From an uncultured Planctomycetia bacterium (lineage in GTDB: Bacteria > Planctomycetota > Planctomycetia > Pirellulales > S012-138): a DNA stretch of 64,000 bases. The notes under the pieces were generated by a model, which searched no databases, was not told where the DNA came from, and saw nothing but the letters and a program-made list of their open reading frames with translations. Positions 22,127-61,108 of the stretch are shown piece after piece. The stretch covers positions 263,191 through 327,190 of the forward strand of contig CAVSWR010000036.1 in assembly GCA_963731685.1 (NCBI GenBank), in the 5' to 3' direction. The translations under genes were made by a program, and so were the position numbers. The stretch's first letter is position 1, and every line of letters begins with the position of its first letter.

Positions 22127-24875
22127 TTGCCCCGGGAAAACATGCAAACAACCCGTCGTTTTCGGATGACCTCGGCTTTCGTTCCAGGGATGGGCCAGCC
22201 GAAGAAATCATCTGCTCGCCAAGCGCACTCGAAGCTTTCCTCGCATCGCATGCTTTGCTTCGAGCGTCTGGAAGATCGCCTGCTGTTGTCCGCTGATCCC
22301 CTCGCCGGATTGCAAAGCGTGGCCGGTGACAACGCCATCGATTCGGGACCGCCATCCAATATCGCGGCGGAGATCCAAGGCAGCAATGATCTCATCGCGG
22401 TCAGCAACACCACTGCCACGCCTTGGAGCCGAATCGTTCGCCTGCGCGTGCATTGGCGCGACGGTTCCGCCAGCGTTTGCAGCGGCGCCTTAATCGACGC
22501 CTCGCATGTCTTGACCGCCGGACATTGCGTCTACGACGCCGAGAACCAGCACGGCGGCGGCTGGGCGCAAAGCATTGAAGTCTATGCTGGACGCGACGGC
22601 GGCGAGATGCCTTTCGGCGTGGCCTACAGCCAGGGTCTGCACGCCTTTTCCGGCTGGACACAAGGCGCCGCCGCGGGCGACGATATGGGCTGGTTTCAAC
22701 TGGACCGCAGCCTCGGAGACTACACCGGCGCCTTTACGCTGCGCACAGACCGACGCGGAACTCACCGGCGCCACGGTCAACCTGGCCGGTTATCCGGGAA
22801 CGTCGGGTTACACCGGCAACGACCTCTACCGCGCCTTCGGTTCCATTGACTCCGTCACGAGCGGGCAGCTTCGCTACAGCGGAACGCTCGACACGCTAGG
22901 CGGCATGAGCGGCTCGCCTGTCTGGCGCTACAACGCCAGCGCCGGCGAGCGCTACCTGGTGGGCGTACACGCCAAAGGCGGCAGTTCCTTTAACGCCGCC
23001 ACCCGGTTGACCTCCGGCAAACTCTCGACAATCATCAGCAGCATCGCGGCTGATCCTCCGCCCGCGGATAAGCCCGCCTTGATGGACTACGACAGTTGGT
23101 TCGGCGCCCAGTCGGCGAGCTTGTCGGCGACTTCCGTGGCGCCGGGGCAGAGTCTTACGCTCGCCTCCAGCGTCTTTAACGGCGGCACGCGCGCCGGCTC
23201 ATCGGTCAAGGTGAATTTCTACGCCTCGACGAACACAACCATTTCATCCGCCGACCATCTCATCGGCTCGTCCTACGTGAACGTGGCGCCGTACAGTCGC
23301 AGCGTCGCAACTTGGACCGGCGCCTTTCCCGGCACGATTCCCGCGGGAAGCTACTACGTCGGCTGGCAGATCGATCCGGACAACACGGTTTTGGAATTCG
23401 CCGACGGCGCCAATACCGGGCAGTTCTCGTCGGCGACAAAGCTGAGCGTTACGGCCGGCCAACCGAAACTCGTTGGGGCCTCGCTGGCGGTTTCCCCCAG
23501 CCGGTTAGCCGCCGGCGACGCGTTCGATGCGAGTTTTCGCGTGCGCAACGACGGCGCCGCCGCGGCCGGCGCGTTCGACGTGAAGTTCTACATCAGCTCC
23601 AACAGCATCATTTCCACCGCCGACCGGCTGCTCGGCGCCTATCGCGTGTCGGGACTGGCCGCCGACACGACAAGCGCCGCCATGCACAAGTCGTTGGCGC
23701 TGCCTGCGCGCGGCGACAGCTTCTGGAACGTCGACGGCACATATTACATCGGCATGATGGTCAATCCCAGCCTGGTCGCCAGCGAAGTGACGGCCGAGGT
23801 CGCGGATGCCTCAAGCCGAAACGCGCCCGTTGACATCGTCGGCGCGCAATTCGCCACGTTCAACTTGATTGGCCGCGACGCGTCCGGTCAATGGAAAATG
23901 GCCAGCGAGGCCGACGGGGTTTTGTCGTCCACTGCGCTTGGCGCCTGGGATGAATCGGCCGGTTGGCGCGACGTTGTCACCGGCGACTTTAACGGCGACG
24001 GCCAGACCGATGTCGTGAGCCGCACCGCCACGGGCCAATGGTGGCTGGGCGGCGCCAACGGCGACTCGTCCATAAACGAATATCTCGGCGCGTGGGACGA
24101 ATCGGCCGGTTGGCGCGACGTGACGGCCGGCGACTTCAACGGTGACGGGCGACTCGATATTGTCGGCCGCACCGCCACGGGACAATGGTGGCTGGGCCAA
24201 AACACCGGCGCCTCGTTCGTCAACGTTTATCTCGGCGCCTGGGACGAATCGGCCAATTGGCGCGACGTGATGACGGGCGACTTCAACGGCGACGGGCGAC
24301 TCGACATCGTCGGCCGCACCGCCACGGGACAATGGTGGTTGGGCCAAAATGTCGGGACTTCGTTCGTCAACGTATACCTCGGCGCCTGGGACGAATCGGC
24401 CAATTGGCGCGACGTGATGACGGGCGACTTCAACGGCGACGGGCGACTCGATATTGTCGGCCGCACCGCCACGGGACAATGGTGGCTGGGCCAAAACACC
24501 GGCGCCGCCCTGGTCGAACAGTTGTTTGGCGACTGGAGCGACACAAAGGATTGGCGCGATGTGGGCCTGGGTGATTTCGACGGCGATGGGCGATTGGACG
24601 TGATCGGCCGCACAGCCGGAGGCGCCTGGCGCGTGGGCCGCAACACGGGGTCGGCCTTCGAGAATCAAATCTTTGGCGCTTGGGATGAATCGGCCGGCTG
24701 GCGCGACGTGTTCGCGGCCGACCTCAATCACGACGGTCGAACGGACGTGATCGGCCGCACCGCCAGCGGGCAGTGGTGGCTTGGCGCCAGCGACGGCGCG
24801 GAACTCGTAAACCATTACCTGGGCGTGTGGAGCGCAACAGACGACTGGCGCGACGTGTCGGTGCTGCCCGGTTAA
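22127..24875 (+). CDS. Secreted trypsin-like (S1/glutamyl-endopeptidase-like) serine protease with C-terminal FG-GAP/VCBS-type tandem repeats; apparent frameshift ~22730-22760
   Basis: N-terminal MLCFERLEDRLLLSA motif. Catalytic His in TAGHC and Ser in GMSGSP. C-terminal GDFNGDGRLD repeat units. The protein is split between ORFs 22127..22849 and 22575..24875. Confidence 0.7.
23935..24860 (+). repeat. About five to six near-identical ~180-bp tandem repeats (coding, FG-GAP-like units)
   Basis: The unit LGAWDESA(G/N)WRDV..GDFNGDGRLDIVGRTATGQWWLGQN.G.SFVNVY is repeated with >90% nucleotide identity between central copies. Confidence 0.8.
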
Positions 24876-31301: not shown

Positions 31302-32765
31302 TCAGTACTTGTCGGCGCCGCCGAGCAGTTTTGACTCCACTTTGTCCGCCTGGTACGCCACGGCCGCCAGCGCGCGGCTGACTTCCAGCGCGTCGAGGGT
31401 CTCGGCCAGTTGGTTGGCCTGAATCACGACCAGGTCGGCGCCGTTACGCGTGATCACGGCGAAGGCTCCGTGCATGAGTTGCGTGTTGTATCGCAGCAGG
31501 CGCATGGCGTTGCGTTCGGTCGAGGGCCCGCAAATCGAGACATAGTTGACGACCGAGTGCCCGTCTTCATCCTTGGCGTCGAAGCGTACCTCGACCACCT
31601 GCTTCCGCAATCCGCCAATTGGCACGGTAACTCGCCAAACGCCACTGTCTTCTTCGATTTGGTATCCGGCCGTTTCCGCCACGGTTCGCACGATCTGTTG
31701 CGGACTCGCGCCTCGGGGAGGGGCGCTGGAGGCCAGATCGTCGAAATCGACAGCCGCCGAGGACGGCGCAGAGGAGGCGGGCGCCGGAGCCGTCGCCGGT
31801 TGCGGCGGCGGGGCGGCGGGCGCGGCCGGAGGTTGAGCGGCGCCGCCCGCGGCGTGTTGGGCGTCCATCGCCTGCCGCAACATTCCGGGCACCATCATGC
31901 CGAAGCCGGCGCCCATTCCCATGCCCATCGCGCCGCCGTCGCCGCCGCGTTCGGCCATTTTGTTCATGCTCTGGGCCGCCTGATACTGCATAAAGGCGTT
32001 CAAGTCGCCCACGGCGCCCATGGCGCTGCGTTGATCGATGGCCTTTTGCACTTCCTCCGGCGGCGTGATGGCGTTGATGAAGAAGTCGACCAGTTCCATG
32101 CCATACTTGCTGAAGTCCTCGGCGACCTTGGCCCTGGTACCCGAGGCGACTTCATCGTACCGTTGCGGCAAGTCCAACAAGCTGATCTGAAGCGTCCCCA
32201 GCAGGTCGGTCATGCGGGAAACGATCCGGTCACGCAAATAGGCCGTAACTTCCTCGGTGGTGTACTTGCCTTGTGTGCCCACCACGGTGCTCAACAACAA
32301 TTGCGAATCAACAACGCGGAAGGAAAACTTGCCAAAGCTCCGCAGGCGCACCATGCCGAAGTCGCGGTCTCGAAAAACGATCGGCTGCGGCGTGCCCCAT
32401 TTTTGGTCGAGAAAGGTTTGCAGGCCAAAGAAATAGACTTGGGCCTGAAACGGCGACTTCTCCCAGGGAATCGTCAGCAATCGCGTGAGGATTGGCACAT
32501 TCATCGTGGTCAGCGTATGGCGGCCGGGAGCGAACTTGTCCAGCGCCTTGCCATCGCGGAAAAACACCGCCTCTTGGTTCTCTTGCACGACGAGTTGCGC
32601 GCCCAGTTCGATATCGGCCGAGCCCTGCTCCGGCACACGGTGTACGAGTGATCGATTGGAGTTGTCGAAGAACTGAATTACTTCCAGACGCAAACCCATG
32701 CTCGTCTCCTCCGCCAAAAGGCGATCAGACCCCTCATAGGGCCAAAGTCGAAAATCTTGAGTCAA
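31302..32765 (-). CDS. SPFH/Band-7 family protein with Gly/Ala/Pro-rich linker and C-terminal YbjN-like domain
   Basis: N-terminal region resembles the Band_7_1 family (…GQWLDLREI-type absent; …[37 protein letters not shown]…). Low-complexity [11 protein letters not shown] linker. Confidence 0.65.
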
Positions 32766-32913: not shown

Positions 32914-33044
32914 CTAGTGCTCTGTCAACGCTAAGAATTCCGGTAGCAGAAGTCGTGAGACTTCTGTAAGTTCAATCGCAGTAACGAATTCCCGAACTCT
33001 CACGAGTTCGGCTACCCTAAAATCAAGGTGTAACAAAGCAGTAG
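32914..33044 (+). repeat. MITE-like ~130-bp element, copy 1 (imperfect terminal inverted repeats CTAGTGCTcTGTcAaC…GtTaACAaAGCAgTAG; internal hairpins CAGAAGTCgtgaGACTTCTG and CGAACTCtcacGAGTTCG)
   Basis: Near-identical sequence at 34563-34692 (same orientation) and 36642-36770 (reverse complement). Confidence 0.8.
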
Positions 33045-33052
33045 CGTTCATA

Positions 33053-33562
33053 TCACTCCAATCCCTGGAGAATCTCCGCCCTCGTTAGCCATTCGCGCTG
33101 CACACCGTCCACTTGTTTCGCCAGCGATTTCAAGGTCTCCGACACCGTGCCGGTTTGTTGCGGGGCCCGTTCTACGGCCTCCGCCAGGGCTTCGACCTGC
33201 TCCATGATCGCCACGTCGCGCTCGTACACCCGGTCGAGTGTCTGCTCGTCAACCTGCGCCAAATCGAAGAAGCCGCTGTAGCCCTGCATGGCGCCGCGAA
33301 TACTAGCGATGAGTTTGTCGAGGCGGCCGCGCAAGCGGTCGCACTCCGGCAGGTCGTCGATGGCGGCCCGATCTGCCAGCGAGCGCGCCAGCTCATCGAG
33401 CCCTGCCTTGGAACGTTGCAAGCGGTCGGCCAGCCAGTGGCGTTGGAGTTGGTCGGCGTCGCGGCGATACTCTCGTTCGAGGTATCCGCCGAACCCCGGC
33501 AGTCGGCGGAGAATGGTCTCGAAGAATCCCCGATTCTGCAAGTGCTCGCTGGGATCGCGCAT
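33053..33562 (-). CDS. Hypothetical protein
   Basis: 169-aa helical-looking ORF immediately 3' of MITE copy 1. Confidence 0.45.
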   Translation of the reverse strand: MRDPSEHLQNRGFFETILRRLPGFGGYLEREYRRDADQLQRHWLADRLQRSKAGLDELARSLADRAAIDDLPECDRLRGRLDKLIASIRGAMQGYSGFFDLAQVDEQTLDRVYERDVAIMEQVEALAEAVERAPQQTGTVSETLKSLAKQVDGVQREWLTRAEILQGLE

Positions 33563-33855
33563 GGAACGGCCTCATTGCGAATGCGATGGGTGAACACGAT
33601 AGCGTAGTATAAGAAGCCTTGCTAACTGAGATGATAGCGAAGCGGGCATCGAACAAAAGAGCCTTTCTCCAGAAAGCGCGCTGGAGTTTGCCGGTTGGGG
33701 TGTCCGATATGATTCTTCGTTCGTGCCGGCCGATTCTTGGGCGAATTCGCCGAACGACTCGTCTGGCGGGTCACGGCGCCGTTTGCTATATTCCGCCGCC
33801 ACGGTTCGCCCGATTCCGGCGCGTTGGGCGCCGATCGCTTCTTTTCGCAGATTCC

Positions 33856-34566
33856 ATGCAAGCACATCGACCCCAACTTATCTTGGCGTTTTGCGGGTGT
33901 TTGCTCGGCGCCGGTGGATGCTCGACGACCTGGGCTCCGCGTTGGGCGTTCTGGGATACGGGCGAATGGCGCGATCCCAACATCGAAGCGCCCATCCAGC
34001 GCATCCAGCGCTATCAAAAGCTCGCGAAGGCAGCCGCTGATAAAACACCCGAAGAGCAACAGCAAGTTTCCGAACAACTTGCCCGAGAGATCGCCGCGGA
34101 ACTGGACCCCCTGGTGCGGGCCCAGATCGTACACACGCTGGCCGCCTATCCCACCAAAATATCCAACAACGTACTGCTGGCGGCGTTAAAAGACGTGAAC
34201 GAAGAGGGCAAGCCAACCCGCGAAGTGCGCATCGCCAGTTGCGACGCCTGGGGCGCGCGCGGCGGTCCCGAGGCGGCAAACGCTTTGCGTGCCGTGCTGC
34301 GGGACCAGGAAAACGACATCGACGTCCGCCTGGCCGCCGTGCGCGCGTTGGGCCAGGTGCGCGATCCGTCGGCGGTGCCGGCGCTCGCCGTGGCGTTGGA
34401 AGACACCGACCCCGCCATGCGCTATCGCACCATGGAATCACTCCAAAAAGTTACGGGACGAAATTACGGCTTCGACGTCACGTTGTGGCGCCAGTTTACC
34501 GAAGGCAAGGAAGTTCCAGAAAAGGAGGAGTCGCTTGTCGAGGAAATAAGGCGGATTCTGTTCTAG
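33856..34566 (+). CDS. HEAT-repeat (PBS-lyase-like) lipoprotein
   Basis: Lipobox LLGAGGCS after the ATG at 33856. Repeated …VR.AA..ALG.. HEAT-like units (VRIASCDAWGARGGPEAANALRAVL, VRLAAVRALGQVRDPSAVPALAVAL). Confidence 0.65.
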   Translation: MQAHRPQLILAFCGCLLGAGGCSTTWAPRWAFWDTGEWRDPNIEAPIQRIQRYQKLAKAAADKTPEEQQQVSEQLAREIAAELDPLVRAQIVHTLAAYPTKISNNVLLAALKDVNEEGKPTREVRIASCDAWGARGGPEAANALRAVLRDQENDIDVRLAAVRALGQVRDPSAVPALAVALEDTDPAMRYRTMESLQKVTGRNYGFDVTLWRQFTEGKEVPEKEESLVEEIRRILF

Positions 34567-34692
34567 TGCTCCGTCAACGCTAAGAATTCCGGTAGCAGAA
34601 GTCGTGAGACTTCTGGAAGTTCAATCGCAGTAACGAATTCCCGGACTCTCACGAGTTCGGCTACCTAAAATCAAGGTGTAACAAAGCACTAG
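34563..34692 (+). repeat. MITE-like element, copy 2
   Basis: >90% identical to copy 1; terminal inverted repeats CTAGTGCT…AGCACTAG. Confidence 0.8.
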
Positions 34693-35097
34693 TATCGCCG
34701 AAAGTGTCGCTGTCCAACGAGCGCTTGGTCGCAGCTAGGATTTCGGAGGGCCGAAGTCCAGCGCCGGCCAATTCGAGCAATGACCGGTGCTAGGACCGTT
34801 TGTTCGTATTTGGAAAACACTAAGACCTGGGGTAGCGTTATCGGTTCAGACAAGGCAGACGCGTGGATCGATTGCTGGGGGCTGTGCGGAAAGTGCAGGG
34901 CCGTTTGGGGGAATGGGCGCGAATCAACGCCGCCTGCTAGCAAATTGACGTGGACGCTTGTGGTTTGGGATACCGATATCACACCTGTCTCGCGAGGCGT
35001 CGTGTCCGATGCCGCGCGGCGAGCGACTTGGACGCACCGGTCCAGTTCACACCGCACATGACCGTCCCCACCTGCAAGCAAGGAAGTTTGACCCAAA

Positions 35098-36534
35098 ATG
35101 CCCGCTCGTTCCTTCATTTCCGCCCTCGCCATTTGCTTCCAAACGACCTTCCTGCTCACTGCGGCGAGCGCGGACGAGAGTCTCAGGCTGAAGTTTCCCA
35201 CCGAAACCGCCAAGACGGACAAGCCAAGCCTCAAGGTTTCCACCAAGGTTTCCGGCGCCGCGCAACGCGGCATCGAGGCGCCCGCCGAAGCGGCCGTTGG
35301 CGATGAGCTTCGCGTCAAGGTCACTAAACCTGCCGGCGCGGACAATCCGGACGCCAAGCCGTCTGGCGATTCGGCTCCCGCCGAAGTGGCAGTATCGGCG
35401 GCTGAGCAAGGCGACGCCGACGAGGACGGCGTGGAATCGGCGTCGGTGACCGTAAAATCGGGCGAGGAAGCCGGACGCGAGGTTCCGCGCCAACTGCGTT
35501 CGTTGCGCACGCGCATCGCCCACGTGCTCGAGATGTACGCCCCCGAGCATCTGAACGATTACGAGCATTCTCCGTGGGAAGTGATGCACGCCATCATCTC
35601 CTACGGCGTCAAAACGAAGGTCCTCATCGGCGGCCCCCGCGGCGAGACCGAGAGCGCCATCGGCTGGATTTGTTATAACCACCCGTTCAAAGGCCAACGG
35701 TTGCTGCGGCTTGAAAACGGGCGGCTCGACGGTATCAAAGGCGTTGGCCTGCAGGGCCATCATGGCCAACTGCTCGCAATGTTGGCGCAAAGCCACTTGG
35801 TGCGATCCTATCCGATTCGCGTCGAGGGCAGGTCGTTCACCGTCGATGACTTGATCGAAAGCGAAAAGCTCACCTGCCGGGCCGGCGAAGAACTCACGTT
35901 TAAACTCATCGCGCTGGCGCATTACGAACCGACCGACGTGACCTGGCGCAGCGAGGATGGCCAGGATTGGTCGATTCCGCGGCTCCTGCGCGAAGAACTC
36001 AAACAGCCCATCCAAGGCGCCGCGTGCGGTGGCACGCACCGTCTGATGGGCCTGAGCTACGCCATCCGCAAACGTGAAAGTGAACAGGCGCCGATGTCCG
36101 GAGAGTATCGGGTCGCCAAGAACTATATCGACGCCTATCACGAATTCGCCCTGCGGTTGCGAAACCCCGACGGCTCGTTCAGCACCCAATGGTTGGAGTA
36201 TCGCCAGGCGCTGCCGGACCTCGAACGCCGCCTGCAAACCAGCGGCCACATTCTGGAATGGCTGGTGTTCTCCTTGCCGGCCGACGATCTCTTCGATCCG
36301 GACTTTACCCGGTCGGTCGATTACGTCACAACATTGCTCGAGCGCGGCCCTCAGCAGGATTGGAAGATTGGCCATTTGGGCCACGCCCTGCACGCGCTGG
36401 CGCTGTACGAGCGGCGGATTTCCAAAGCCCTCGCCGGGTCAGGCGGGCCGTCGGTTGCCGCAAGCAAAGCGCAAGAGGCCGGTGACGACGAAAACGCCGG
36501 CCAGAAACAGCTTGTGAAACGCCGCTTTCAATAA
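35098..36534 (+). CDS. Hypothetical secreted protein (bracketed by inverted MITE copies 2 and 3)
   Basis: Signal peptide MPARSFISALAICFQTTFLLTAASA. Protein-like composition. The antisense ORF 35047..36393 is Arg/Gly-rich and rejected. Confidence 0.6.
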   Translation: MPARSFISALAICFQTTFLLTAASADESLRLKFPTETAKTDKPSLKVSTKVSGAAQRGIEAPAEAAVGDELRVKVTKPAGADNPDAKPSGDSAPAEVAVSAAEQGDADEDGVESASVTVKSGEEAGREVPRQLRSLRTRIAHVLEMYAPEHLNDYEHSPWEVMHAIISYGVKTKVLIGGPRGETESAIGWICYNHPFKGQRLLRLENGRLDGIKGVGLQGHHGQLLAMLAQSHLVRSYPIRVEGRSFTVDDLIESEKLTCRAGEELTFKLIALAHYEPTDVTWRSEDGQDWSIPRLLREELKQPIQGAACGGTHRLMGLSYAIRKRESEQAPMSGEYRVAKNYIDAYHEFALRLRNPDGSFSTQWLEYRQALPDLERRLQTSGHILEWLVFSLPADDLFDPDFTRSVDYVTTLLERGPQQDWKIGHLGHALHALALYERRISKALAGSGGPSVAASKAQEAGDDENAGQKQLVKRRFQ

Positions 36535-36641
36535 GCGCGGCGCAAGTTGCACAGCGCCGCTTTGCAGGGTTGGACGGAACAGATCAGCCGTTTTGGCGCC
36601 GCCTCGTGGTTGCATCGCAACCGAAAGCGGCGCTGTCCGAC

Positions 36642-36770
36642 CAGTGCTTTGTCACACCTTGATTTTAGGGTAGCCGAACTCGTGCGAGTTTGGGAATTCG
36701 TTAATGCGATTGAACTTCCAGAAGTCTCACGACTTCTGCTACCGGAATTCTTAGCGTTGACAGAGCACTG
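36642..36770 (-). repeat. MITE-like element, copy 3 (inverted orientation)
   Basis: Reverse complement of copies 1 and 2. Confidence 0.8.
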
Positions 36771-36790
36771 GAGTCTTTAAGCGTCGGACT

Positions 36791-38392
36791 TTATTGCCGG
36801 CGCTCTGCAAAGACTTGGCGTCCCTCGATAACCTCGCGGCGGCGGCGGAGCAGCACGGGATTTCCCGGATGGGCCAAGAGGCCGCGTTCGTACAGCGCAA
36901 CGGCCTGTGCGGTGTCGCCGCGCTGCGAGCAGGCTTGGGCGGCTAGCACGATCATGTCAATATCGGCGTTGGCTAGCTTCCCTCCCTCGGGCAGGCGCCG
37001 CCGGGCGTCGGCCAGCAGTTGCAAACTCTCTTCCACGCGTCCACCGGCGGCCAGGCTCGCGGCCCAACGGCGGTAAATGTCGCCACTGGATACGACGAAC
37101 TTCGGGCTTTCCGGCGCCTCGGCGACCGCCTGTTGCAGCGTCTGCAAGGCTTCCGCGAAACGGCCCTCGCGGCACATGGCGTCAACCCACTGTTGGCTCA
37201 AAGCCACGTGATTGATGGCAAACGTCGCGTGCCCCGGCGCCAGGCGCCGTCCTTGCTGGATCAGAGCCAACGCGTCGGCGAAACGGCGCCGCTGTGCTAA
37301 ATCGAGCGCCCAGTTGTTGATCGCCGCGTGCAAATTACCGCGCGCCGTCACGTTTCGCGGGTCCAGCCGCAACGCCTTGAGATTCGCCCCCACGGCCCCG
37401 GCAAACTCCTCTTGCTCGACATGATCGACGCCGCGGTTGTAGTACACCAACGCCAGCAGGCCGTTGGCGTCGAGGGTCCGCGCCGCCGGTTGTTCGCCGG
37501 AGGCGCCGCGAGGTTCCGCTTTGGCGGTGGGAGGTGAGAACTCGGCGCGCCGCCGCGGGTCGTCGAGCAATTCGAACCAGCGAGGGCAAGTCGTTTCAAC
37601 CTCCCACTGGGCGCCGCCCCAGTTCACGACACTCAACACGTGGCCTGGTTTCACAACGGCCGACGCCGGGAGTTCGACCGCCGCCGCCAGGCAATTGTAG
37701 AGCACCGTCGCGCTAATGCAGTTGTAACGGCCGCTGTCGAGACATTCCGCCAGGCTCGTGCAGTCGATGTCGTAGTCGCCGCGCAGAATCTCGTGGTGCA
37801 AGAACTCAAAGGCCAACTCGGCGCGGCGGCGCTCGCCGAGCGGCTGGCCGTCGGATTCCGCGTCGGCCACAACCCGCTTAAGCTGGCTGGCCAGGCGGAC
37901 AAAACGTTGTTCGTACGATTTCACAGCGGACTCGTCCAAGCCGCTGGCGACAAACGCCCCCCAGAGCAGGTTCCCGTTGTCCAGCCGGTGTTCCGCGGCC
38001 AAGTCGAACAGCGCGGATTCCAGCGGGCTGAACGCGATGGACGATTCCAGCGGCGCGGTAAATCTCGCGCACTCGGCCGAAACAGCGGACGCAGGCGCAG
38101 AAGCTCTGCGCGACTCGGCCAATGCGCCTGAACAGATTTCCGCGGCGCAAAGCAAGGCAAGCAGACGGAGCGTCAATACAGGTCGCACGGAGTGATCTCT
38201 TGGCAGGAGTGGCGACGATAATTCCGTTCGGGAAAGCCTCGGCGGTGAGGTAAACTCTCCGACCAAGAAATCTACGTTGCAAAAACGCGACGCGCCGGCG
38301 AGTCGCTGCAAAAAGTCAACAACCACTCGGCGGCGCGAGTCCGTTTGCAACGGCTGGTTCACATGCGCGGCGCCACGCCCCCGGGCGGCCAA
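36791..38392 (-). CDS. Transglutaminase-like domain + TPR-repeat protein, secreted
   Basis: Region …GRYNCISATVLYNCLAAAV… resembles the transglutaminase-like Cys core. The C-terminal half has TPR-like helical repeats. Confidence 0.55.
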   Translation of the reverse strand: MAARGRGAAHVNQPLQTDSRRRVVVDFLQRLAGASRFCNVDFLVGEFTSPPRLSRTELSSPLLPRDHSVRPVLTLRLLALLCAAEICSGALAESRRASAPASAVSAECARFTAPLESSIAFSPLESALFDLAAEHRLDNGNLLWGAFVASGLDESAVKSYEQRFVRLASQLKRVVADAESDGQPLGERRRAELAFEFLHHEILRGDYDIDCTSLAECLDSGRYNCISATVLYNCLAAAVELPASAVVKPGHVLSVVNWGGAQWEVETTCPRWFELLDDPRRRAEFSPPTAKAEPRGASGEQPAARTLDANGLLALVYYNRGVDHVEQEEFAGAVGANLKALRLDPRNVTARGNLHAAINNWALDLAQRRRFADALALIQQGRRLAPGHATFAINHVALSQQWVDAMCREGRFAEALQTLQQAVAEAPESPKFVVSSGDIYRRWAASLAAGGRVEESLQLLADARRRLPEGGKLANADIDMIVLAAQACSQRGDTAQAVALYERGLLAHPGNPVLLRRRREVIEGRQVFAERRQ

Positions 38393-47626: not shown

Positions 47627-47699
47627 GGGGACGTAGCTCAATCGGGAGAGCACCGGCTTTGCAAGCCGGGGGTTGGCGGTTCGATCCCGCTCGTCTCCA
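47627..47699 (+). tRNA. tRNA-Ala (anticodon TGC)
   Basis: Cloverleaf GGGGACG/CGTCTCC acceptor stem with the G3:U70 Ala identity pair. Anticodon loop TTTGCAA. T-arm GGTTCGATCC. Discriminator A. CCA is not encoded. Confidence 0.9.
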
Positions 47700-48915: not shown

Positions 48916-51693
48916 GTGCCAGCCCGGGTTGATACAATCAGCAAAGCAAATGCCGCGCCCCGGCCCGACTACGACCGCGACCTGGCGCTGCTCGACGCCG
49001 ACACCGGCTACCAGTCCGACAGCGCCGCCCGCTACGCCAGTGAGATGCTCGCGCTGGCCCAAGGCAGCGACACGCCCTGGGGCTGGGAGCACTCTGCGGA
49101 GGCCGCCGCCGCGGCCGAATACGCCTCCTCGATGGCCGCCGCCGCACTGACCGACGGCACGGCCACGATCGACGAGAGCTACACGTTCGCGCAGACCGTG
49201 GCCGACGAGACCCGCACGCTTTCGGTTAACGAGGCCACGGCCGCCTTCAATTCCGCCACGGCGCTGGCCGCGGCCGAGTACAACCACGTGACGTCCCACG
49301 CCACGGCCCTGGCCAACGACAACTACGACATCGCCGAGCGCGTGCCGACGGCGGTGATCACCTTGGTGGGATTGGACGACCTGGATGGCCGCGCGGCCGG
49401 CGACCCGGCCGACTTCATCGCGGCCTTGAACAAGAACGGCGGCTCCCCGTTCAGTGACCTCGGCGACAGCTTCTACACGGCGGCCGTCGACAAGATGTTC
49501 TACACGCCGCCGGAGACCGACGAACTCGGCTACAGCAACAGCTTCGACCGCTGGCTCGGCGAGAACCTCATCCGCCCCGCCGTCGGCGACGACAACCTCA
49601 TCAACGCCACCGACGCCCAGCTATTCTGGGGCACCGCGGCCTTCGCCGCGATAAGCGCGGTGAGCATTGTCTACGCCGCCCCAGTGCTCGCCACGGCCGT
49701 GGTCGACATGGGCATCAAGGGGGTGGTGTTCACACTGGCGAAAGATTTCATCATTGGCGGCGCGATCTCTGGCATCATCGACGCGGGCGTGCAGTTGGAG
49801 CACATGTACGAAAACGGCGGCGACTTCAATTGGAGTCGACTCGGCGAGTCCATCGTCGTGGGCGGTGTGATGGGCATGGGGATGGGAACGGCCTTCCGCG
49901 GCGTGCAGACCTTGTCGAAGGCCCTCACCACGCGCTACGCCGCGGCTTGCGTGCCGGTCACCATCGGCCAAAAGCTGGGGCTCGGCTACTTGGGCAGCAA
50001 GGGCATCGCTCATGGCGTCGAGGCCATCGGCAACGGCGAGACGGTCGAAGGCGTCAGCAGCATCTTGTTCGGCGCCCTCGGCGTGGCCGGCGCCCTGTCC
50101 ATGCGTTGGAACTGCTTCACGGCCGGCCATCAGATTCTCGCCTTGCCGCTCGGCGTGACCGTCGCTGAAGCTTCGGCAAGCATGAGCGACGAAACGCGAG
50201 GTTGGCGAACTGAGTATTTCATCGGCGCCAGCGTGGCGATTGCGGTCGGCATGACCGGTTGGGTGCGCGAACGCCGCAAACGCCGGCGACTGTTGGCGCA
50301 AGCCCGCGACCATGTGTATGGTTCCCAGTGGGAATCAAACTCGCGACATGACCTCGACGATGACGCATATCCAGATTTGATGCCGGAAGCAATCGCCATG
50401 GATGACGCCGAGGCTACTATTTGGGCGGATGAATCGTACCTGCCGGACGCGGACTATTTTGATGAGCGCGCAGCTCTACTTCAGGCGCTGAACAAGCTTG
50501 CGGCGTAGCGTGCCTACCGCGGCCACAAGCGGAGTTGATTCGCGATCCGCGCGCCGCGAAGCCATCCGCTGCGCGCAAAGCGAAGATCCCGGCCGATCAG
50601 CCGAGAGAATCACATCGCGGCGCGTCTATGGATCGGCCTTTCACTCATCGTCGCTTTCTTCTGTCTTTTCCAGGCGCTGCCCCGTTGGTCGCGCACCGAC
50701 GGCCTTTCTTCGTCGCGCACGCGACACGCTGTCGCTCCGTCTTCGCTCGACACGAATATCGCCAGCGACTACCGCGTCGGCGCCGAGAACTACAAGTTCT
50801 TCAACATCGAGGACATTCGCCCGGGACAGCTGGTCCTGGCGTCCAACCCTGCCACCGGCCAGCTTGAACCGCGCCGTGTCCTCCAAACCTTCCAGCGCAC
50901 AACCTACCACCTCCGCTACCTGACCTTCGAGTCTACCACCGGCGTCCGCCAAACCTTCGAGACAACGGACGAGCACCCGTTCTGGTCGCAATCTGAATTC
51001 CGCTGGGTATCCGCCGGCGACCTCCAACCCGGTGACCGCGTCATCGACCCGCACGGCGCGCAATCCCTCCTCGTCACCACCCACCGCGAGCCCCACCCCG
51101 AAGGCGTAACCGTCTACAACTTCGAGGTCGAAGGCTTCCACAGCTACTTCGTAGCGGCAAAAGGCCCTGGCGGTGAGCCGGTATTGGTGCATAATGCGGA
51201 CTGCGGCCCCAACTCGCCCAGCCGCTCCAGATCCCGTCCGTCAAACGACAACTTCCGTAACGGCTATGATCGGATATTTGGAAATGGTTCATCAGCAGAA
51301 ACGCGGGTGTTCCAAAATGAAATCCCCATCATGACACCAGCGCAAACGCAGCAAGCGCTAAGGGCTGGCGGCTACACAGGAAACACTTCGTGGGCATACA
51401 GCATTCATGATCATCACATCTCTCCGCGTTGGCTGGGTGGAAAAGACGCGGGACCACTGCTACGTGTGCGAGGTTTCGAGCATATTACCGATCTCGAACC
51501 TGGACTCTGGGCGCACGTGAAGCGAAACATCCCGGGGCTGACGGAAAAAACTACTGCAAATGTGCAGCGATTGATGCGAGACGGATTCGTCACAAGTGAA
51601 GAAATCATGCGAACGTTGTTCAGTTTTTACAAGGCTCGATATCCGCAACTATCGGATGAGGCAATCCTAAACGTGCTGAGACAGGGGTTGTGA
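48916..51693 (+). CDS. Polymorphic-toxin cassette A: 5'-truncated (homology to full-length copy starts ~48965, about aa 205) with two apparent frameshifts (~50440-50470 and ~50618); Hint domain plus C-terminal toxin tip A (DHH-type putative HNH/EndoVII-fold nuclease)
   Basis: ORFs 48916..50508, 50535.. and 51184..51693 together parallel copy 57352..60717. Landmarks are CFTAGHQILAL, …VYNFEVEGFHSYFVAAKGPGGEPVLVHN, then the tip …SIHDHHISPRWLGG…. Confidence 0.55.
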
Positions 51694-51694
51694 G

Positions 51695-52162
51695 ATGAAA
51701 TTCAACGAACAGATCCAAATTCGCGGCGAACCTTTTCCTAGCCCGCTCCCGTTGCCCCCATCACAAATGATTTCCCTGCTGGAGGCGCATGGCTTGCGAT
51801 TTGTGTTCGACGATGGCGTTTTGCGACTTCGTGGCACATATGACCCGACAAGATGCGAAACTTTAAAAGCGGTGTTGGCATCTAATGACCTTGATGTGAA
51901 TGTTTGGCAGCAAGTCTGGACAACATATGACGATGACGATTTCGACATGGCTCCTCTTTGGCTCGTCTTGGGGATTCCTGAAGTACGGATAGCGGGAATT
52001 GACTTTACTGTGACTTGCCCCATGTGCGCAAGAACCAAAGTCCACGTGGATACCGATGTACAAGTTCCAAGAGTGAATACACGCAAACCAATAGTCAACG
52101 TGAATGGGCAATTTACGATCGTTGGCGCAGAACTTGCCAGCGCATCGAAACGGACTTGCTAG
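51695..52162 (+). CDS. Candidate immunity protein for toxin tip A
   Basis: ATG overlaps the toxin stop (TGAGATG). ~48% GC. 155 aa. Confidence 0.45.
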   Translation: MKFNEQIQIRGEPFPSPLPLPPSQMISLLEAHGLRFVFDDGVLRLRGTYDPTRCETLKAVLASNDLDVNVWQQVWTTYDDDDFDMAPLWLVLGIPEVRIAGIDFTVTCPMCARTKVHVDTDVQVPRVNTRKPIVNVNGQFTIVGAELASASKRTC

Positions 52163-52176
52163 GATTCTCGCTGCCC

Positions 52177-52476
52177 ATGTTTGACGTTGCGGGCAGATAC
52201 CATTATTTGCGGTCTACGTGCCAACTTCGGCACCCTGCTATTCGTTCTGCTTACGCTATTGGTCTAAGAGGGAACTGCACGCTATGTTCGCTGCCACTCT
52301 ATGACAAATTCTTCGGCCCGCTGGAGTACCCCAGAAAGGAATGGCACGATGAGGATATTGTCTACTGCGACTTTTATAGTTGCAATGCATACACACCTAA
52401 GGCATACAATTTGCTTCGGAACGCTGACTCGGCTATTGTTCGAGACCGGATCATCTTGATGGAAGCATCGACGTGA
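52177..52476 (+). CDS. Second small low-GC ORF downstream of cassette A (hypothetical; possible additional immunity gene)
   Basis: 100-aa Cys/Tyr-rich ORF (…YCDFYSCNAYTPKAYNLL…). Confidence 0.3.
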   Translation: MFDVAGRYHYLRSTCQLRHPAIRSAYAIGLRGNCTLCSLPLYDKFFGPLEYPRKEWHDEDIVYCDFYSCNAYTPKAYNLLRNADSAIVRDRIILMEAST

Positions 52477-52539
52477 GTGAGCGGCTTTTCACATCTGACC
52501 GCACTGCAGTTCAGACGTCACACAGTCCAGGACGAGAAA

Positions 52540-52660
52540 AAGCTGGTATGTGGGTAACGCGATTTTAGCAACAGCGCGTACCGATTGCGCCTCCTGCGTT
52601 GCAGTCTTTGAAAGTTCAGTCGAAGGACTCGGCGCGGTTGCGGCGATCGACTCATCTCGG
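52540..52660 (+). repeat. ~115-bp inter-cassette element, copy 1 (second copy at 60995-61108)
   Basis: …CGCG(A/G)TTTTAGCA(A/G)CAGCGCGT…GAAAGTTC(A/C)GTCGA(A/C)GGACTCGGCG(C/T)GGTTGCGGCGATCGACTCATCTCGG… is conserved at both sites. Confidence 0.7.
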
Positions 52661-52752
52661 TCGATTTTCTGAGTTGTTCTCGCCAACTTGTCATAAAAGA
52701 GGCCAAGGCGCCGAGCTGCCATATCCGGCGTGCAACTTCTCGACAGAGCGCC

Positions 52753-54088
52753 GTGCTCTTGAAAAACGGCCTTGGCTCGCCAGCTTTCGCCGGCGGCGGC
52801 GCCGACCATGTCTACGAATCGCAATGGTGGATGGAACTGCCGCGCCACGCGGATGAAGACGATGAATTCGATCGGGCGATGAGCGAAGGAATCGCCGTGA
52901 CTGACGGCGCCGATGCGGATGTCTGGTCGGACGAGTCATTCCTCCCTGAGGCCGATTCTTTCCGTGATTGCGAACCTTCGCCAACTTCCGTTGGAGTTCA
53001 CGCTTTAGGCTGCTTGACGCCGCCGCGCGCGGAACGATCAACGGCAACGGCGCGCTTTTCGAAAGGCGCCACGTTCCCATAAAACGCTTATCGAGTCCAA
53101 GCCGCCGCGCGAATCCCGCCGCGGCGCGCTCTGGCTCGGTGTTTCGCTCCTCGTGGCCTTCTTCTCTCTGTTCCAGGCCCTTCCCCGTTGGTCAGCAAAC
53201 GACGGCCTTGCGCCGACGTGCGTTGAGCAAGCCGTCACTCTCGACTCGCTCGACACCAAACTTGCCGGCGACTACCGCGTCGGCGGCGAGTCCTTCAGCT
53301 TCTTCAACATCGAGGACATTCGCCCCGGACAACTCGTCCTCGCCTCGAACCCCGCCACCGGCCAGCTTGAGCCCAAACGCGTCAAGCAAATCTTCCGCCG
53401 CATTACGGACCATCTCCGCCACCTCACCTTTGAATCCTCCACCGGCGCCCGCCAAACCTTCGAAACCACCGACGAGCACCCCTTCTGGTCGCAATCCGAA
53501 TTTCGCTGGCGCCCCGCCGGCGACCTCCAACCCGGCGACCGAGTCATCGACCCCCACGGCGCCACCTCTCTCCTCGTCGCCACGCATCGCGAACCCCACC
53601 CCGAAGGCGTCCCAGTCTACAACTTCGAGGTAGAAGGCTTCCACAGCTACTTCGTAGCGGCAAAAGGCCCTGGCGGCCAGCCAGTGTTGGTGCATAATGC
53701 AAATTCACAAACATATGGCCCCCACAAATCAATTGGAACGAAAACCGGAGAGCAACGTCATCACATAATCCAAGATGCAAGAGCCAGGATTGTCGACAAC
53801 TACAAGTATGGCGATGCTCCCGCGGTTCGACTTCGGGGGAACCGCTTGCGTGGCACGCCGCATGGCGATGCGAGCGCGATGCAAACTCGAATAAATCAGA
53901 CGCTCCTAAAGAAAGGCACGACTCGGATAAGGTATCCACAAGCTCGATCGGCGGCGCGCGCTGAACTAAGGGCCGCAGGTCTCACGGAAAAGGAAATAGA
54001 CATCTTGATAGAGGAAGCCGACGATTACTTCATAAACGAACTGAAAATTGATGTAACGCAACGCATTTTCAACGTCCCAACGCAATGA
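52753..54088 (+). CDS. Polymorphic-toxin cassette B: 5'-truncated orphan (homology starts ~52800 at ADHVYxxQW); apparent frameshift ~53040-53090; Hint domain plus toxin tip B (RHHIIQ-type putative HNH-fold nuclease)
   Basis: …VYNFEVEGFHSYFVAAKGPGGQPVLVHNANSQTYGPHKSIGTKTGEQRHHIIQDARARIV… The tip is unrelated to tips A, C and D. Confidence 0.55.
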
Positions 54089-54921
54089 AAACCTGTAACT
54101 ATGTACGTATAAGGCGTGGCCTAACTGAGTGTAAATCACTAGTCTTGGCTCATATCGAAGATGATGACTCGCCAGATGTAATAGTGAGTCAACTCATTTC
54201 TATTGGCAGCGGTGACTGCGAAATTGTGGGTGACTTTCCAGGTGAGTGGATCACGTGCTTCGACGTTCAAGAAGACCTATGTGTTGCGGTTTCGTCGCTC
54301 GGAACAATCTACGAATATCGCCATGGTAAATGGAGCATCATTGCACAATTGACCTTTCCTAATGTGATCGCTGATGTGATCATATTGGATCGTGGCACGT
54401 ACTTGATTGCTGGCCAAGGCGGATTGATAGGCGAGTGGTCGCATGATGGATTTGTGCGAACCAGAGCATCTCGACGTGTGGACTTGATCTCAATTTGTCG
54501 CGATGAAGACGGTGGTTACTTGATATGTGGTGACCAAGGAACCATCCTGAGGTATCGCGACAATGCGGTGTTTAGCGAAGATGCAGGCACGCGTGAAAAG
54601 CTAACGAGGATTCTTTGTACGAATGCAGGTTTGTCATTTGCTTGTGGTTGGAACGGCGCATTGATACGGCGCGAAAGCGGAAAATGGCTACCGATGGATA
54701 GTGGCACAGATTGGTGCCTTACCGGGATCGCAATCACCGATCACGACCAAGTCTATGTGGCAGGTGGCGGGCTCGCCCGAGTTGGAAACGGTACTTGCTG
54801 TGTAGAAATAGATTCTGATCTAACGAATACATATTTATTTGACATATGGAAGATTCGTGACGAGCAGTTTATCGTTACCGGCGTGGACCAGGTATTGACT
54901 GGACCTCCGTGGAAAGTTTAA
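54085..54921 (+). CDS. Candidate immunity protein for toxin tip B
   Basis: ATGA start/stop overlap. ~45% GC. 278-aa protein with repeated G-x-L/I-rich units suggesting a repeat/propeller fold. Confidence 0.45.
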   Translation: MKTCNYVRIRRGLTECKSLVLAHIEDDDSPDVIVSQLISIGSGDCEIVGDFPGEWITCFDVQEDLCVAVSSLGTIYEYRHGKWSIIAQLTFPNVIADVIILDRGTYLIAGQGGLIGEWSHDGFVRTRASRRVDLISICRDEDGGYLICGDQGTILRYRDNAVFSEDAGTREKLTRILCTNAGLSFACGWNGALIRRESGKWLPMDSGTDWCLTGIAITDHDQVYVAGGGLARVGNGTCCVEIDSDLTNTYLFDIWKIRDEQFIVTGVDQVLTGPPWKV

Positions 54922-55062
54922 TGCAACCTTGAATATTGGTTTCAAACGTGGACTGCTGATCGTTGCGATGGTCTGCCCGTGCTACCTGTTGCGGAATTGA
55001 GGGCGACCAAGAACAGCCAAATCCGACTTGTGAGCCAGTTAGGTTCGCAACTAGCTCGGACT

Positions 55063-56712
55063 TACCTACCTGAGCGGCAAAGGCATCGCTCATGGCGTCG
55101 AGGCGATCGGCAACGGCGAGACGGTCGAAGGCATCAGTAGCGTCCTCTTGGGCGCCCTCGGCGTGGCCGGCGCCTTGTCGATGCGTTGGAACTGCTTCAC
55201 CGCCGGCCATCAGATTCTCGCCTTGCCGCTCGGCGTGACGGTGGCCGAAGCCGCGCTCGGCGCGAATGATGAAACGACCGGTTGGCGAACCGAGTATCTC
55301 ATCGGCGCCGGCGTAGCGATTGCCGTCGGCATGACCGGTTGGGCGCGCGAGCGCCGCAAACGCAGGCGATTGTTGGCGGAAGCCCGCGACCATGTGTATG
55401 GTTGCCAGTGGGAAACAAACTCGCGACATGACTTCGACGATAACGACGACCCGTTGCGGGAAGCAATCGCCATGGACCACGCGGAAGCCGCTATTTGGTC
55501 AGATGAATCGTTCCTCCCAGACGGGGATTCGTTCAATGAGCCAACAACCACGTCTTTTACTTCAGGCTCTGAACAAGCTCACAGCGTAGCGTGCCTTGCG
55601 CCGCCGCATGTGGCGCTTTCCGCTCGAATGCCGTGCGCCACGAAACCATCCGCTGCCCGCAATGCGAACGTGAAAGTTAAGACGCCGCGCCGATCCCGTC
55701 GCAGCGGTCTTTGGCTTGGTCTTTCACTCGTCGTAGCTTTCTTCTGCCTGTTCCAGGCGTTACCTCGCTGGTCTTCCACCGATGGCCTGCCATCGGCGGG
55801 CAATCGGCACGCCGTCGCTCCTTCTTCGCTCGACACGAACATCGCCAGCGACTACCGCGTCGGCGCGAACACGTACAACTTCTTCAACATCGAGGACATT
55901 CGACCCGGACAACTGGTCCTCGCCTCGAACCCCGCCACCGGCCAACTCGAACCGCGGCGAGTCCTTCAAACCTTCCGCCGCACAACCCATCACCTGCGCC
56001 ACCTGACCTTCCAATCCCCCACCGGCGCCCACCAAACCTTCGAAACCACCGACGAGCACCCCTTCTGGTCCCACGGCGCCGCCCGCTGGACCCCCGCTGG
56101 CGACCTCCAACCCGGCGACCGAGTCATCGACCCCCACGGCGCCAATCCCTACTCATCGCCACCCGCCGCGACCCCCATCCCGAAGGCGTCACCGTCTACA
56201 ACTTCGAGGTCGAAGGTTTCCACAGCTATTTCGTAGCCGCCAAAGGCCCTGGCGGCCAACCGGTATTGGTTCATAATGCAGCCTGCGGCCCCAACTCGCC
56301 CAGCCGGTCCAGATCCCGTCCGGCCAACGACGAATACCGTTCGAGTTACGACCGGATTTTTGGTGGCACCCCTAGGGGCGGAGCACATCCTGCTACTAAG
56401 AAAGCTGCAAGTTTTGGCAGTACAATGCATGCCGATAAACCCGGACACCTTCCGGACCAACTGCGTCAACGCTTTCCAGAGACTGAGTTTGAATTCACCA
56501 AACCGGGCGTTGCAGGACAAGATGTAAAGGTCGCGGGTGGCAAACACCCTTCGGATTACGCTGGATCGACGTGGCCAAGCGGAGTTAACCATGCTGATTT
56601 CAAACCGAATACCCCCGGTGGCTTGAAGACGTTCCAATCCGACCAGCTCAAGAAATGGTTGGAGAGGACCGAAATGTTACGCTACAATCCATCAACCGGA
56701 GACCTACTGTGA
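55063..56712 (+). CDS. Polymorphic-toxin cassette B2: 5'-truncated orphan (homology starts ~55063, just before the CFTAGHQ motif); 1-nt deletion ~56150; Hint domain plus toxin tip C (unassigned)
   Basis: ORFs 55148..56236 and 55711..56712. The tip shares its first ~25 aa (ACGPNSPSRSRSRPANDEYRSSYDRIFGG) with tip A and then diverges (…HADKPGHLPDQLRQRFPETEFEFTKPGVAGQDVKVAGGKHPSDYAGSTWPSGVNHADFKPNTPGG…). Confidence 0.5.
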
Positions 56713-57152
56713 TTAGCAAACAATTGGCGTATCCAGGGTTTACGATTGATGTTCCATGCAGCTGGGATGATATTACGGCGACTCTTGATGATGCGGACGC
56801 GCCTATTACAATCGCAGATCCTCAAGCAGGTTTGGGGGCGTTTCAGATATCGCCTGCGTTATATAAACGTGGTGTCTTACCCAAAGTGACGCCCAACGAC
56901 CTGCGGACTATGCTTCTTGAGTTTACGTCCGCTAAGGGCTTTCATGCCGCTGGCGACGTGATAGAGAATCTGGGCGACACCATTGTGGTGGGCGGCGTTT
57001 TTCGCAGTTCAAACTACGCCGTGGAAGTTGCCTACGCCTCTGACGGGCGGAGTATTCTGTTGGTAACCTATGTTTGTGAATGGTTTCAGAGGCGTCAGGA
57101 ATCGGACGTGAGAATGGCAGTGATCCGCTCAATCCGCTTTGTTGATTCTTAA
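56709..57152 (+). CDS. Candidate immunity protein for toxin tip C
   Basis: GTG overlapping the toxin stop (GTGA). 148 aa, soluble. Confidence 0.4.
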   Translation: MISKQLAYPGFTIDVPCSWDDITATLDDADAPITIADPQAGLGAFQISPALYKRGVLPKVTPNDLRTMLLEFTSAKGFHAAGDVIENLGDTIVVGGVFRSSNYAVEVAYASDGRSILLVTYVCEWFQRRQESDVRMAVIRSIRFVDS

Positions 57153-57351
57153 AGGCATGACGCATGACCAAGTCATGCTGTAACGACTCGTAGACCGCCA
57201 ATGCTTTAACCGAGAAGTAAAACGGGGACATCCTACTTTTTCGTTGCGGGTGCGCCGGCGTGCTGTCGAATGATCCGCCGCCGTGACCATCGTCTACGGC
57301 GGCCCGGCGATCGTCGCTGAGGTGAAGAGAAAAAGGGGATAAGTCCAATAT

Positions 57352-60717: not shown

Positions 60718-60971
60718 CGGGACACACAACAAAGCTACAACGAGCGTTCTGGTGGTGGCGAAACCCGTTTGTAAAGTTAATCATGCTCATAGCCTTTTCA
60801 GCAATCGGTGGTATAGCTCTTGCAACGCATGAGCTGCCGTTCTGGGTCCGTTTTCCCATTTACATTCTGTGGAGCGTCACTGCAATTCTCACGTTGATTT
60901 GTGCCGCGGCTGTTCTATTGGAGGAACGCGCGCGAAAGAAAAGGCGGAAAGTGTCGGAGGATAAATCATGA
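60714..60971 (+). CDS. Candidate immunity protein for tip D: small two-TM membrane protein
   Basis: ATGA overlap with the toxin stop. Hydrophobic helices LIMLIAFSAIGGIALA and ILWSVTAILTLICAAAVLL, then a KKRRK tail. Confidence 0.5.
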   Translation: MTGHTTKLQRAFWWWRNPFVKLIMLIAFSAIGGIALATHELPFWVRFPIYILWSVTAILTLICAAAVLLEERARKKRRKVSEDKS

Positions 60972-60994
60972 GTTGATGAGGGAAAAAAGCTGTC

Positions 60995-61108
60995 ATGTGG
61001 GGAACGCGGTTTTAGCAGCAGCGCGTGCGGATCGCGGCCCAGCGTCGCGGGTTTTTCGAAAGTTCCGTCGACGGACTCGGCGTGGTTGCGGCGATCGACT
61101 CATCTCGG
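60995..61108 (+). repeat. ~115-bp inter-cassette element, copy 2
   Basis: Homologous to 52540-52660. Confidence 0.7.

Follow-up and report, generated by a model that had tools for sequence, protein, structure and literature searches.

In the REPIN-RAYT system of Pseudomonas fluorescens SBW25 (Bertels & Rainey 2011, PMC3116915) and in the Escherichia coli system of repetitive extragenic palindromes (REPs), bacterial interspersed mosaic elements (BIMEs) and TnpA-REP (PMC3333891), the tetranucleotide GTAG precedes a short hairpin, an inverted pair of REPs forms a larger hairpin (REP doublet forming hairpins, REPIN), the copies are extragenic and dispersed, and the same REPs flank a usually single-copy gene for an HUH/Y1 transposase, the REP-associated tyrosine transposase (RAYT). 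A short palindrome preceded by GTAG defines the GTAG REP superfamily, and two such units placed head to head make a REPIN/BIME-like doublet (PMC3116915, PMC3333891 and PMC3733652). The latter source (Di Nocera et al. 2013) describes GTAG REPs and REP-flanked tyrosine transposase genes (REPtron, rba11751) in Rhodopirellula baltica, where the REPs form heterodimeric head-to-head dimers and lie between convergent or unidirectional genes. Here, we analysed a 64,000-nt stretch of contig CAVSWR010000036.1 from an uncultured Planctomycetia bacterium (hereafter, the window), in which a first-pass annotation had called attention to three ~130-nt repeats resembling miniature inverted-repeat transposable elements (MITEs). 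These repeats, copies A, B and C (Table 1), are best classed as REPIN-like doublets of GTAG REPs whose arms are extended and end in CTAG, members of a REP family that spans the Planctomycetota and is tied to a divergent RAYT clade.

All six half-sites of the window consist of GGTAGC followed by an 8-bp stem with a 4-nt loop. In each of the three copies, two such units stand head to head on either side of a 25-nt spacer, one with a GAAGTC/GACTTC stem and the other with a GAACTC/GAGTTC stem, and it is this arrangement of GTAG-plus-hairpin units in inverted pairs that places the elements among REPIN-like doublets. Read from the end inward, each half-element comprises CTAGTGC, three variable bases, GTCA, ~14 poorly paired bases, GGTAGC and the stem-loop; outer arms of ~28 nt that end in CTAG thus enclose the doublet. 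The hairpin conforms to the formula GGTAGC-N-GAA-N-TC-GTGA-GA-N-TTC-N-G, the half-motif being written GGTAGCNGAANTCGTGAGANTTCNG. The full ~130 nt make up an imperfect palindrome, with RNA folding z-scores of −5.3 to −7.3 on both strands relative to shuffled controls; folded as single-stranded DNA, the whole element scores z = −4.1 to −4.6, and REP 1 in isolation reaches −7.7 kcal/mol (z = −5.0).

Set against the SBW25 and E. coli systems, the window elements belong to another phylum, carry the additional 28-nt CTAG-ended arms and have a REP that is conserved over several orders rather than within one genus; their stems are perfect over 8 bp and capped by a GNNA-type loop, whereas E. coli REPs are bulged. 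The R. baltica system shares the phylum and the RAYT family, although its GTAG REPs are likened to those of the window by description and not by sequence, and PMC3733652 does not describe CTAG-ended arms for Planctomycetes. It does report REP dimers regularly nested in a longer conserved palindrome, with no 'empty' palindromes in the genome, for GTAG-15 of Anabaena variabilis and CGTC-1 of Halothiobacillus; the sequences and host phyla of these families are unrelated to ours, and window-type arms, unlike theirs, also carry other cores.

The first-pass annotation had located the three repeats correctly, save that copy C extends by one more base at each end, and its figure of more than 90% identity agrees with the pairwise values of our repeat search: 95% identity over 108 nt for A and B, 96% complementarity over 125 nt for A and C, and 93% over 109 nt for B and C. 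The internal stems it had pointed out, CAGAAGTC/GACTTCTG and CGAACTC/GAGTTCG, were likewise found in the copies, and its terminal inverted repeats read CTAGTGCTYTGTYA.C at both ends, with pairing at 12 of the first 14 positions. The description of all copies as intergenic was nearly right: copies A and C lie outside genes, but the initial CTAG of copy B holds the TAG stop codon of a HEAT-repeat gene. A three-way alignment that included 20-25 nt of flank confined the likeness exactly to CTAG...CTAG (CCAG...CTGG in copy C), with unrelated sequences up to the termini, which rules out a segmental duplication. Searching the whole 64 kb with up to three mismatches returned six half-sites and six termini, all of them from copies A-C, for 0.0 and 0.1 expected from shuffled sequence. 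The situation named beforehand as fatal to a mobile element, three sites only within a segmental duplication, therefore does not hold, given the unrelated flanks and the occurrence of the family in many other genomes. All three window copies fall within 3.9 kb, a clustering that may reflect local hopping or chance.

We further assessed the distribution of the hairpin by an exact-match scan with the half-motif across one genome per GTDB species, a set of matches among which, as listed, the source genome of the window does not figure. The scan retrieved at least 107 loci, and among the matches listed nearly all come from Planctomycetota metagenome-assembled genomes (MAGs) of several orders, under the labels Pirellulales, Pirellulaceae, Planctomycetaceae/Planctomycetales, Thermoguttaceae, Gemmatales, Schlesneria and Limnoglobus. 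The few outlier labels among these matches (Deltaproteobacteria, Verrucomicrobiia and Kuenenia MAGs) may reflect errors of binning or labelling. Exact matches occupy at least 11 loci in Pirellulaceae G1-WW12-08 and at least nine in Pirellulales SMAG_U5535, and BLAST uncovered full-length relatives of the 130-nt element, 79-88% identical, in at least four other MAGs.

The stem bears the marks of selection on its structure. In the 117 matches listed, the four positions left free in the pattern make up two pairs, of which the outer is Watson-Crick in 89% of cases and the inner in 96%, with CG, GC, TA and AT all represented, and an inverted partner lies within 90 nt in 100 of the 117, across spacers of 1 to 59 nt. 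Covariation at the free positions and the frequency of inverted partners therefore indicate that the hairpin is kept by compensatory change and that the doublet is its normal state. Moreover, when read on the GTAG strand, 504 class-A hairpins contain lone non-canonical pairs of the G.T/T.G type 129 times versus 13 for A.C/C.A, a count drawn from partly dependent copies and dominated by one stem position. This excess implies that the GTAG-bearing strand must fold, and the strand asymmetry fits recognition of a single strand rather than a double-stranded protein-binding site. Collectively, these data show the hairpin to be a selected single-strand structure. A particular G.T pair recurs at the fourth stem position in many REPs around RAYT genes (CTGGATTC...GAATTCAG or CCGGACTC...GAGTTCGG; loci L110, L119, L121, L128, L150, L170-L173 and L185 in our numbering), always on the GTAG strand. 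Like the bulge in the REPs of E. coli, this pair may serve for recognition.

We then related the hairpins to RAYT genes in 86 loci, 6 genomic and 80 metagenomic. GTAG hairpins stand on both sides of the RAYT gene in 70 of these, on one side in nine and on neither in seven, and their density amounts to 7.8 per kb within 300 nt of the gene versus 0.38 per kb farther off. Most of the flanking REPs belong to the stem family of the window, C-N-GAA-N-TC, with gcca, gcaa, gtaa or gtga loops; the exact gtga-loop class of the window adjoins RAYT genes in at least six loci (L135, L137, L148, L152, L159, L183), whereas a Roseimaritima relative (L108) has a different REP stem, GGATCTT-gtta-AAGATCC. RAYT proteins are 67% identical within the same REP stem class as opposed to 55% between classes, a difference attained in none of 1000 permutations, and in 71 of 79 cases a RAYT and its nearest neighbour belong to one stem class. 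REP class thus tracks RAYT similarity, as it should if an enzyme and its hairpin are inherited jointly or coevolve. Long tandem runs of REPs flank some RAYT genes, as in L185 (2159-3400), where 18 lie no more than 350 nt from the gene on either side, and L137 (3085-3188) contains a run of the half-hairpin unit GAGAATTCTGAGT.

The proteins themselves were collected with the R. baltica RAYT rba11751 as query, its sequence being given in supplement 5 of PMC3733652. This search yielded 863 relatives of ~190 aa that are ~60% identical across the phylum, and in 40 sequences the motifs PDHxH (HUH) and YIARNPER (with the catalytic Tyr) are invariant. The best match of the clade in a profile search of the PDB was 4ER8 (E = 0.026), a structure of the E. 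coli RAYT in complex with a REP hairpin (PMC3479197). An AlphaFold model (pLDDT, predicted local distance difference test, 92.5) again retrieved 4ER8_A as the top hit in a fold search (E 2e-7, TM-scores of 0.61/0.70), followed by the TnpA proteins of IS608, ISDra2 and IS200. The Planctomycetota RAYT clade is, then, one of divergent HUH/Y1 tyrosine transposases: its members are ~15% identical to 4ER8, have no conserved WQ motif and score below the NCBIfam and Pfam cut-offs. Both a motif regular expression and phmmer with 11 published RAYT/TIRYT sequences failed to find a RAYT in the window or in any of the 107 REP-bearing loci listed, the one hit being a short fragment in L005. RAYT genes usually occur once per genome, and their absence from sampled REP loci is normal.

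We consider it reasonably probable (about 0.68) that the three repeats are REPIN-like non-autonomous elements mobilised in trans by a RAYT. An enzyme encoded elsewhere in the genome would bind the folded GTAG-strand hairpin in single-stranded DNA, GTAG would guide its cut at the CT dinucleotide of each terminus, and the excised strand would go back in beside a CT/CTAG target; such a cycle of cutting and reinsertion would account for dispersed copies with unrelated flanks. The scheme resembles the 'peel and paste' transposition of the IS200/IS605 family (IS608, ISDra2), which likewise combines a Y1 HUH enzyme, sub-terminal hairpins, a 5' tetranucleotide guiding distant cleavage, and insertion beside a short specific target without true duplication. 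In contrast to those insertion sequences (ISs), the window elements are devoid of a transposase and palindromic, so that their strands look alike, and the cleavage at CTAG is a proposal.

The arms set the window elements, and a subset elsewhere, apart from plain REP doublets. Arm-bearing elements of other genomes come as short forms of 111-113 nt (Thermoguttaceae and Schlesneria MAGs) and as long forms (Pirellulaceae MAGs). The consensus of 30 half-elements from at least nine genomes reads cTAGTGC..tGTCA...CT.a..tTt.GGGTAGC, and GTAG occupies nt 30-33 in 24 of the 30, that is, the CT start is fixed 29 nt from GTAG. Every arms-class element pairs one GAAGTC with one GAACTC hairpin, a conserved heterodimer that introduces mismatches in the long fold-back and thereby favours two local hairpins. 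TnpA-REP cuts single-stranded DNA at CT (one enzyme also at CA), on the 5' or the 3' side of the REP, with the site chosen through the GTAG guide (PMC8266576). On this footing we tentatively suggest, as a doubtful but specific proposal, that the CTAG arms are true REPIN cleavage and insertion boundaries, the Planctomycetota RAYT being guided by GTAG to cut at CT 29 nt outside each hairpin and to insert by CT|AG, often within the TAG stop of a gene. If so, these would be the first REPINs with a complete transposition unit and target site readable from sequence, the RAYT-REP pair would be conserved across a phylum and not just a genus, and the arms would constitute a modular carrier for different REP classes.

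Copy B offers a view of the target. The HEAT-repeat gene 33856-34566, identically called in the database, has its TAG stop at bases 34564-34566, and 10 of 14 homologues of the encoded protein stop at the same final Phe (...F*). The gene must then have had this stop already, and the empty site is reconstructed as TTCTAG|TATCG, which makes at least one CTAG part of the target. Such an empty site agrees with duplication of 4 bp or of TA as well as with HUH-type insertion 3' of CT, and it excludes an element that carries both CTAGs to a random position. The flanking CTAG is itself palindromic and makes direct and inverted repeats look alike. The relatives of the flanking genes, up to 63% and 46% identical, were too distant for nucleotide alignment of empty sites.

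Other arm-bearing loci show further combinations. CT.GTGCTTTGTCA arms surround a REP class of the form GTAG-CCACGMTC-gcca-GAGCGTGG in L080 (289-422) and L050 (1560-1620), and REPs of this type flank other RAYT genes (L127, L141, L177, L184). In L074 (2798-2943), CTAGTGG..ACAACTTAAG arms delimit a 146-nt palindrome whose core is a 22-bp GC-rich perfect hairpin instead of REPs; it adjoins a REP-type element with which it has one CTAG in common, the arms behaving as a modular carrier. Elements abutting at a single common CTAG also occur in L040. A possible IHF-like site (ATCAAG) noticed by eye in one arm was dropped, as it is not conserved in the short forms.

The genes around the three copies are ordinary (Table 1), with SPFH/Band7, HEAT-repeat and TPR proteins and two of unknown function, and copy C is separated by 107 nt and 20 nt from the stop codons of its two convergent neighbours. 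The HEAT-repeat orthologue of another Planctomycetota assembly, GCA_973787255.1, is followed, 4 nt after its stop, by an arm-less doublet of gcca-loop REPs of local type (L195, 3688-3745); either the two genomes share an old insertion site or the 3' end of this gene has been preferred more than once.

Table 1. Positions of the REP doublets, their parts and the adjoining genes, numbered from the first base of the window
Feature	Position	Strand	Remarks
Copy A, whole palindromic element	32914..33044	+	131 nt; ends CTAG...GTAG
Copy A left arm, CTAGTGCTCTGTCAACGCTAAGAATTCCG	32914..32942	+	terminal CT 29 nt before GTAG
Copy A REP 1, GTAG-CAGAAGTC-gtga-GACTTCTG	32943..32966	+	8-bp stem, GTGA loop
Copy A central spacer	32967..32991	+	25 nt, weakly self-complementary; its length sets the 130-nt 'long form'
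Copy A REP 2, inverted, GTAG-CCGAACTC-gtga-GAGTTCGG	32992..33015	-	sub-threshold match to Rfam Acido-Lenti-1
Copy A right arm, ends ...GTAACAAAGCAGTAG	33016..33044	+	
Copy B	34563..34692	+	130 nt; ends CTAG...CTAG
Copy B REP 1, GTAG-CAGAAGTC-gtga-GACTTCTG	34592..34615	+	
Copy B REP 2, GTAG-CCGAACTC-gtga-GAGTCCGG	34641..34664	-	one A.C mismatch
Copy C	36641..36771	-	131 nt; inverted relative to A and B; ends CCAG...CTGG
Copy C REP, CGAACTC type, GTAG-CCGAACTC-gtgc-GAGTTTGG	36670..36693	+	loop and stem slightly decayed
Copy C REP, AGAAGTC type, GTAG-CAGAAGTC-gtga-GACTTCTG	36719..36742	-	
SPFH/Band7 gene	31302..32765		copy A upstream of the gene
Open reading frame	33053..33562	-	copy A 8 nt downstream of its stop
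Gene preceding copy C	35098..36534	+	convergent with the TPR gene; copy C in between
TPR gene	36791..38392	-	convergent with the gene preceding copy C

The description of the repeats as MITE-like suits their shape, given their small size, lack of coding sequence, dispersal, inverted termini and unrelated flanks, but shape is all that it describes. The internal hairpins are no incidental feature: they form an inverted GTAG-REP doublet, of a class that goes with HUH/Y1 tyrosine transposases (RAYT/TnpA-REP) and not with a deleted DDE IS. Taken literally, the MITE description would make the CTAGTGC..GTCA arms terminal inverted repeats read as double-stranded DNA by a DDE transposase, either IS630/Tc1-like with the TA within CTAG or IS5/IS701-like with a 4-bp YTAR duplication, and the REP doublet a passenger or a later insertion. 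We regard this as unlikely. It would explain inverted termini of ~14 bp bounded by CTAG, one of which the host supplied in copy B, as well as the single CTAG between the neighbouring elements of L074 and L040. However, a one-of-each hairpin heterodimer in every arms-class element is unexpected for a random passenger, the termini keep their fixed 29-nt distance from GTAG and start with CT, the cleavage dinucleotide of RAYTs (PMC8266576), and the CCAG...CTGG ends of copy C are an inverted pair, not the direct one that a duplication produces. Nor did the search for a cognate autonomous IS advised by the first-pass annotation lend it a transposase: none bounded by such termini was found in the window and 1.1 Mb of related loci, a small and biased sample in which CTAGTGC..GTCA pairs up to 3.5 kb apart were inspected and the IS-sized ones proved to be chance matches around ordinary genes. 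One candidate, in L026, encloses a ParD-like antitoxin gene and a HEAT gene without a transposase, and its left 'terminus' falls in coding sequence. Full-length imperfect palindromes of ~100-150 bp in transcribed intergenic regions are also known as Correia elements in Neisseria and ERIC sequences in enterobacteria. Correia ends begin with TATAGTGG and use a TA target. These families differ from ours in the absence of a GTAG-REP core and of any RAYT association, and the resemblance of the termini is anecdotal.

Several observations do weigh against mobilisation by a RAYT. The direct CTAC...CTAC ends of two elements (L038, L057) resemble the 4-bp target duplication typical of DDE transposition, and the varied cores enclosed by the arms (the second REP class of L080 and L050, the GC-rich hairpin of L074) suggest an independent carrier or a preferred target, so that the arms as a favoured landing pad with REPs as cargo are kept in consideration. 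The REP doublets next to RAYT genes have no CTAGTGC arms, shared vertical descent could partly explain the correlation between RAYT and REP, and the clade scores only 30-42 bits with NCBIfam NF047646 (cut-off 80) and 14-16 bits with Pfam PF01797 (cut-off 23). Finally, the window holds just three copies, all inside 3.9 kb of its 64 kb, and a RAYT cognate to them is assumed, none being encoded there. The same clustering, with no copy elsewhere in the 64 kb, is what chance similarity or a local segmental duplication would have in its favour, an explanation that is extremely improbable in view of flanks unrelated up to the termini, the null expectation from shuffles and homologous elements 79-88% identical in other genomes.

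A host-selected RNA or DNA structure spread by recombination, be it a 3'-end stabiliser of mRNA, a Rho-independent-like terminator, a small RNA or a protein-binding site, is improbable as the main explanation. In keeping with it, all three copies lie 0-107 nt past stop codons in tandem or convergent intergenic regions, fold strongly on both strands and tolerate G.T pairs on the GTAG strand, the REP bears a sub-threshold likeness to the Acido-Lenti-1 RNA motif, the HEAT-repeat orthologue mentioned above has its own REP doublet just past the stop, and doublets are found in convergent intergenic regions in 23 of 74 cases versus 100 of 511 background gene pairs, an excess that is merely suggestive since gene context came from a crude caller based on GC content at third codon positions, with 20 unreliable 'inside ORF' (open reading frame) cases. 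On the other hand, an intrinsic terminator was rejected, as the stems are not followed by a T tract and a terminator scan detected no terminator-like site at any copy (elsewhere in the region it scored four, for 5.5 expected), and at gathering thresholds Rfam reported only a tRNA and no family at the elements. Furthermore, the elements face either way with respect to transcription (copy A antisense, copy B sense), a syntenic but not alignable relative (L197) lacks any element, and a purely regulatory role leaves the tight RAYT association unexplained. A permissive Rfam search gave spurious microRNA models and matches of 24.7 and 20.6 bits to Acido-Lenti-1 (RF01687; Weinberg 2010, PMC2864571), which fall short of the gathering score of 37 and denote no membership. 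Like the window REP, that family has a stem of 8 bp and a YNAC loop of 4 nt, with GCUA as the 3' tail, its consensus being the reverse-complement image of GTAG plus hairpin, whereas stem sequence and host phyla differ. REPs of E. coli are known as hairpins at mRNA 3' ends. It is plausible that the window copies, situated just past stop codons, may secondarily serve as such 3'-end hairpins.

The window contains two further repeat structures. From 48916 to 64000, four to five copies of ~4-kb units (families D2-D20) form a serial array of polymorphic-toxin cassettes, in which ORFs 53153-54088, 55148-56236 and 57352-60717 encode Pretoxin-HINT domains (PF07591); a tRNA gene (47627-47699) lies just upstream of the array. 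At 23919-24861, five to six tandem 147-nt units lie inside the ORF of a 766-aa FG-GAP/CARDB repeat protein (22575-24875) and are therefore protein-domain repeats rather than a non-coding array.

The kind of element described here is already known, also in Planctomycetota: the first-pass statement that such repeats are poorly catalogued in this group is fair, yet PMC3733652 already reports GTAG REPs and RAYT genes for R. baltica, and what is new is a well-delimited member, whose arms and fixed CT termini are the one feature worth pursuing. To our knowledge, work on REP/REPIN-RAYT systems has been done almost only in Gammaproteobacteria, and the excision and landing sites of REPINs are poorly defined. 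In the Planctomycetota family, a hairpin strongly conserved over several orders goes with a divergent, well-folded RAYT clade. Its termini are sharp, start with CT and keep a constant distance from the GTAG guide, and one empty site can be rebuilt from a conserved protein C-terminus, which makes the family a convenient system for the study of cleavage-site selection by RAYTs. For genome annotation, it accounts for conspicuous intergenic palindromes of Planctomycetota that would otherwise be called MITEs, terminators or small RNAs, and it indicates that such elements can provide or overlap stop codons.

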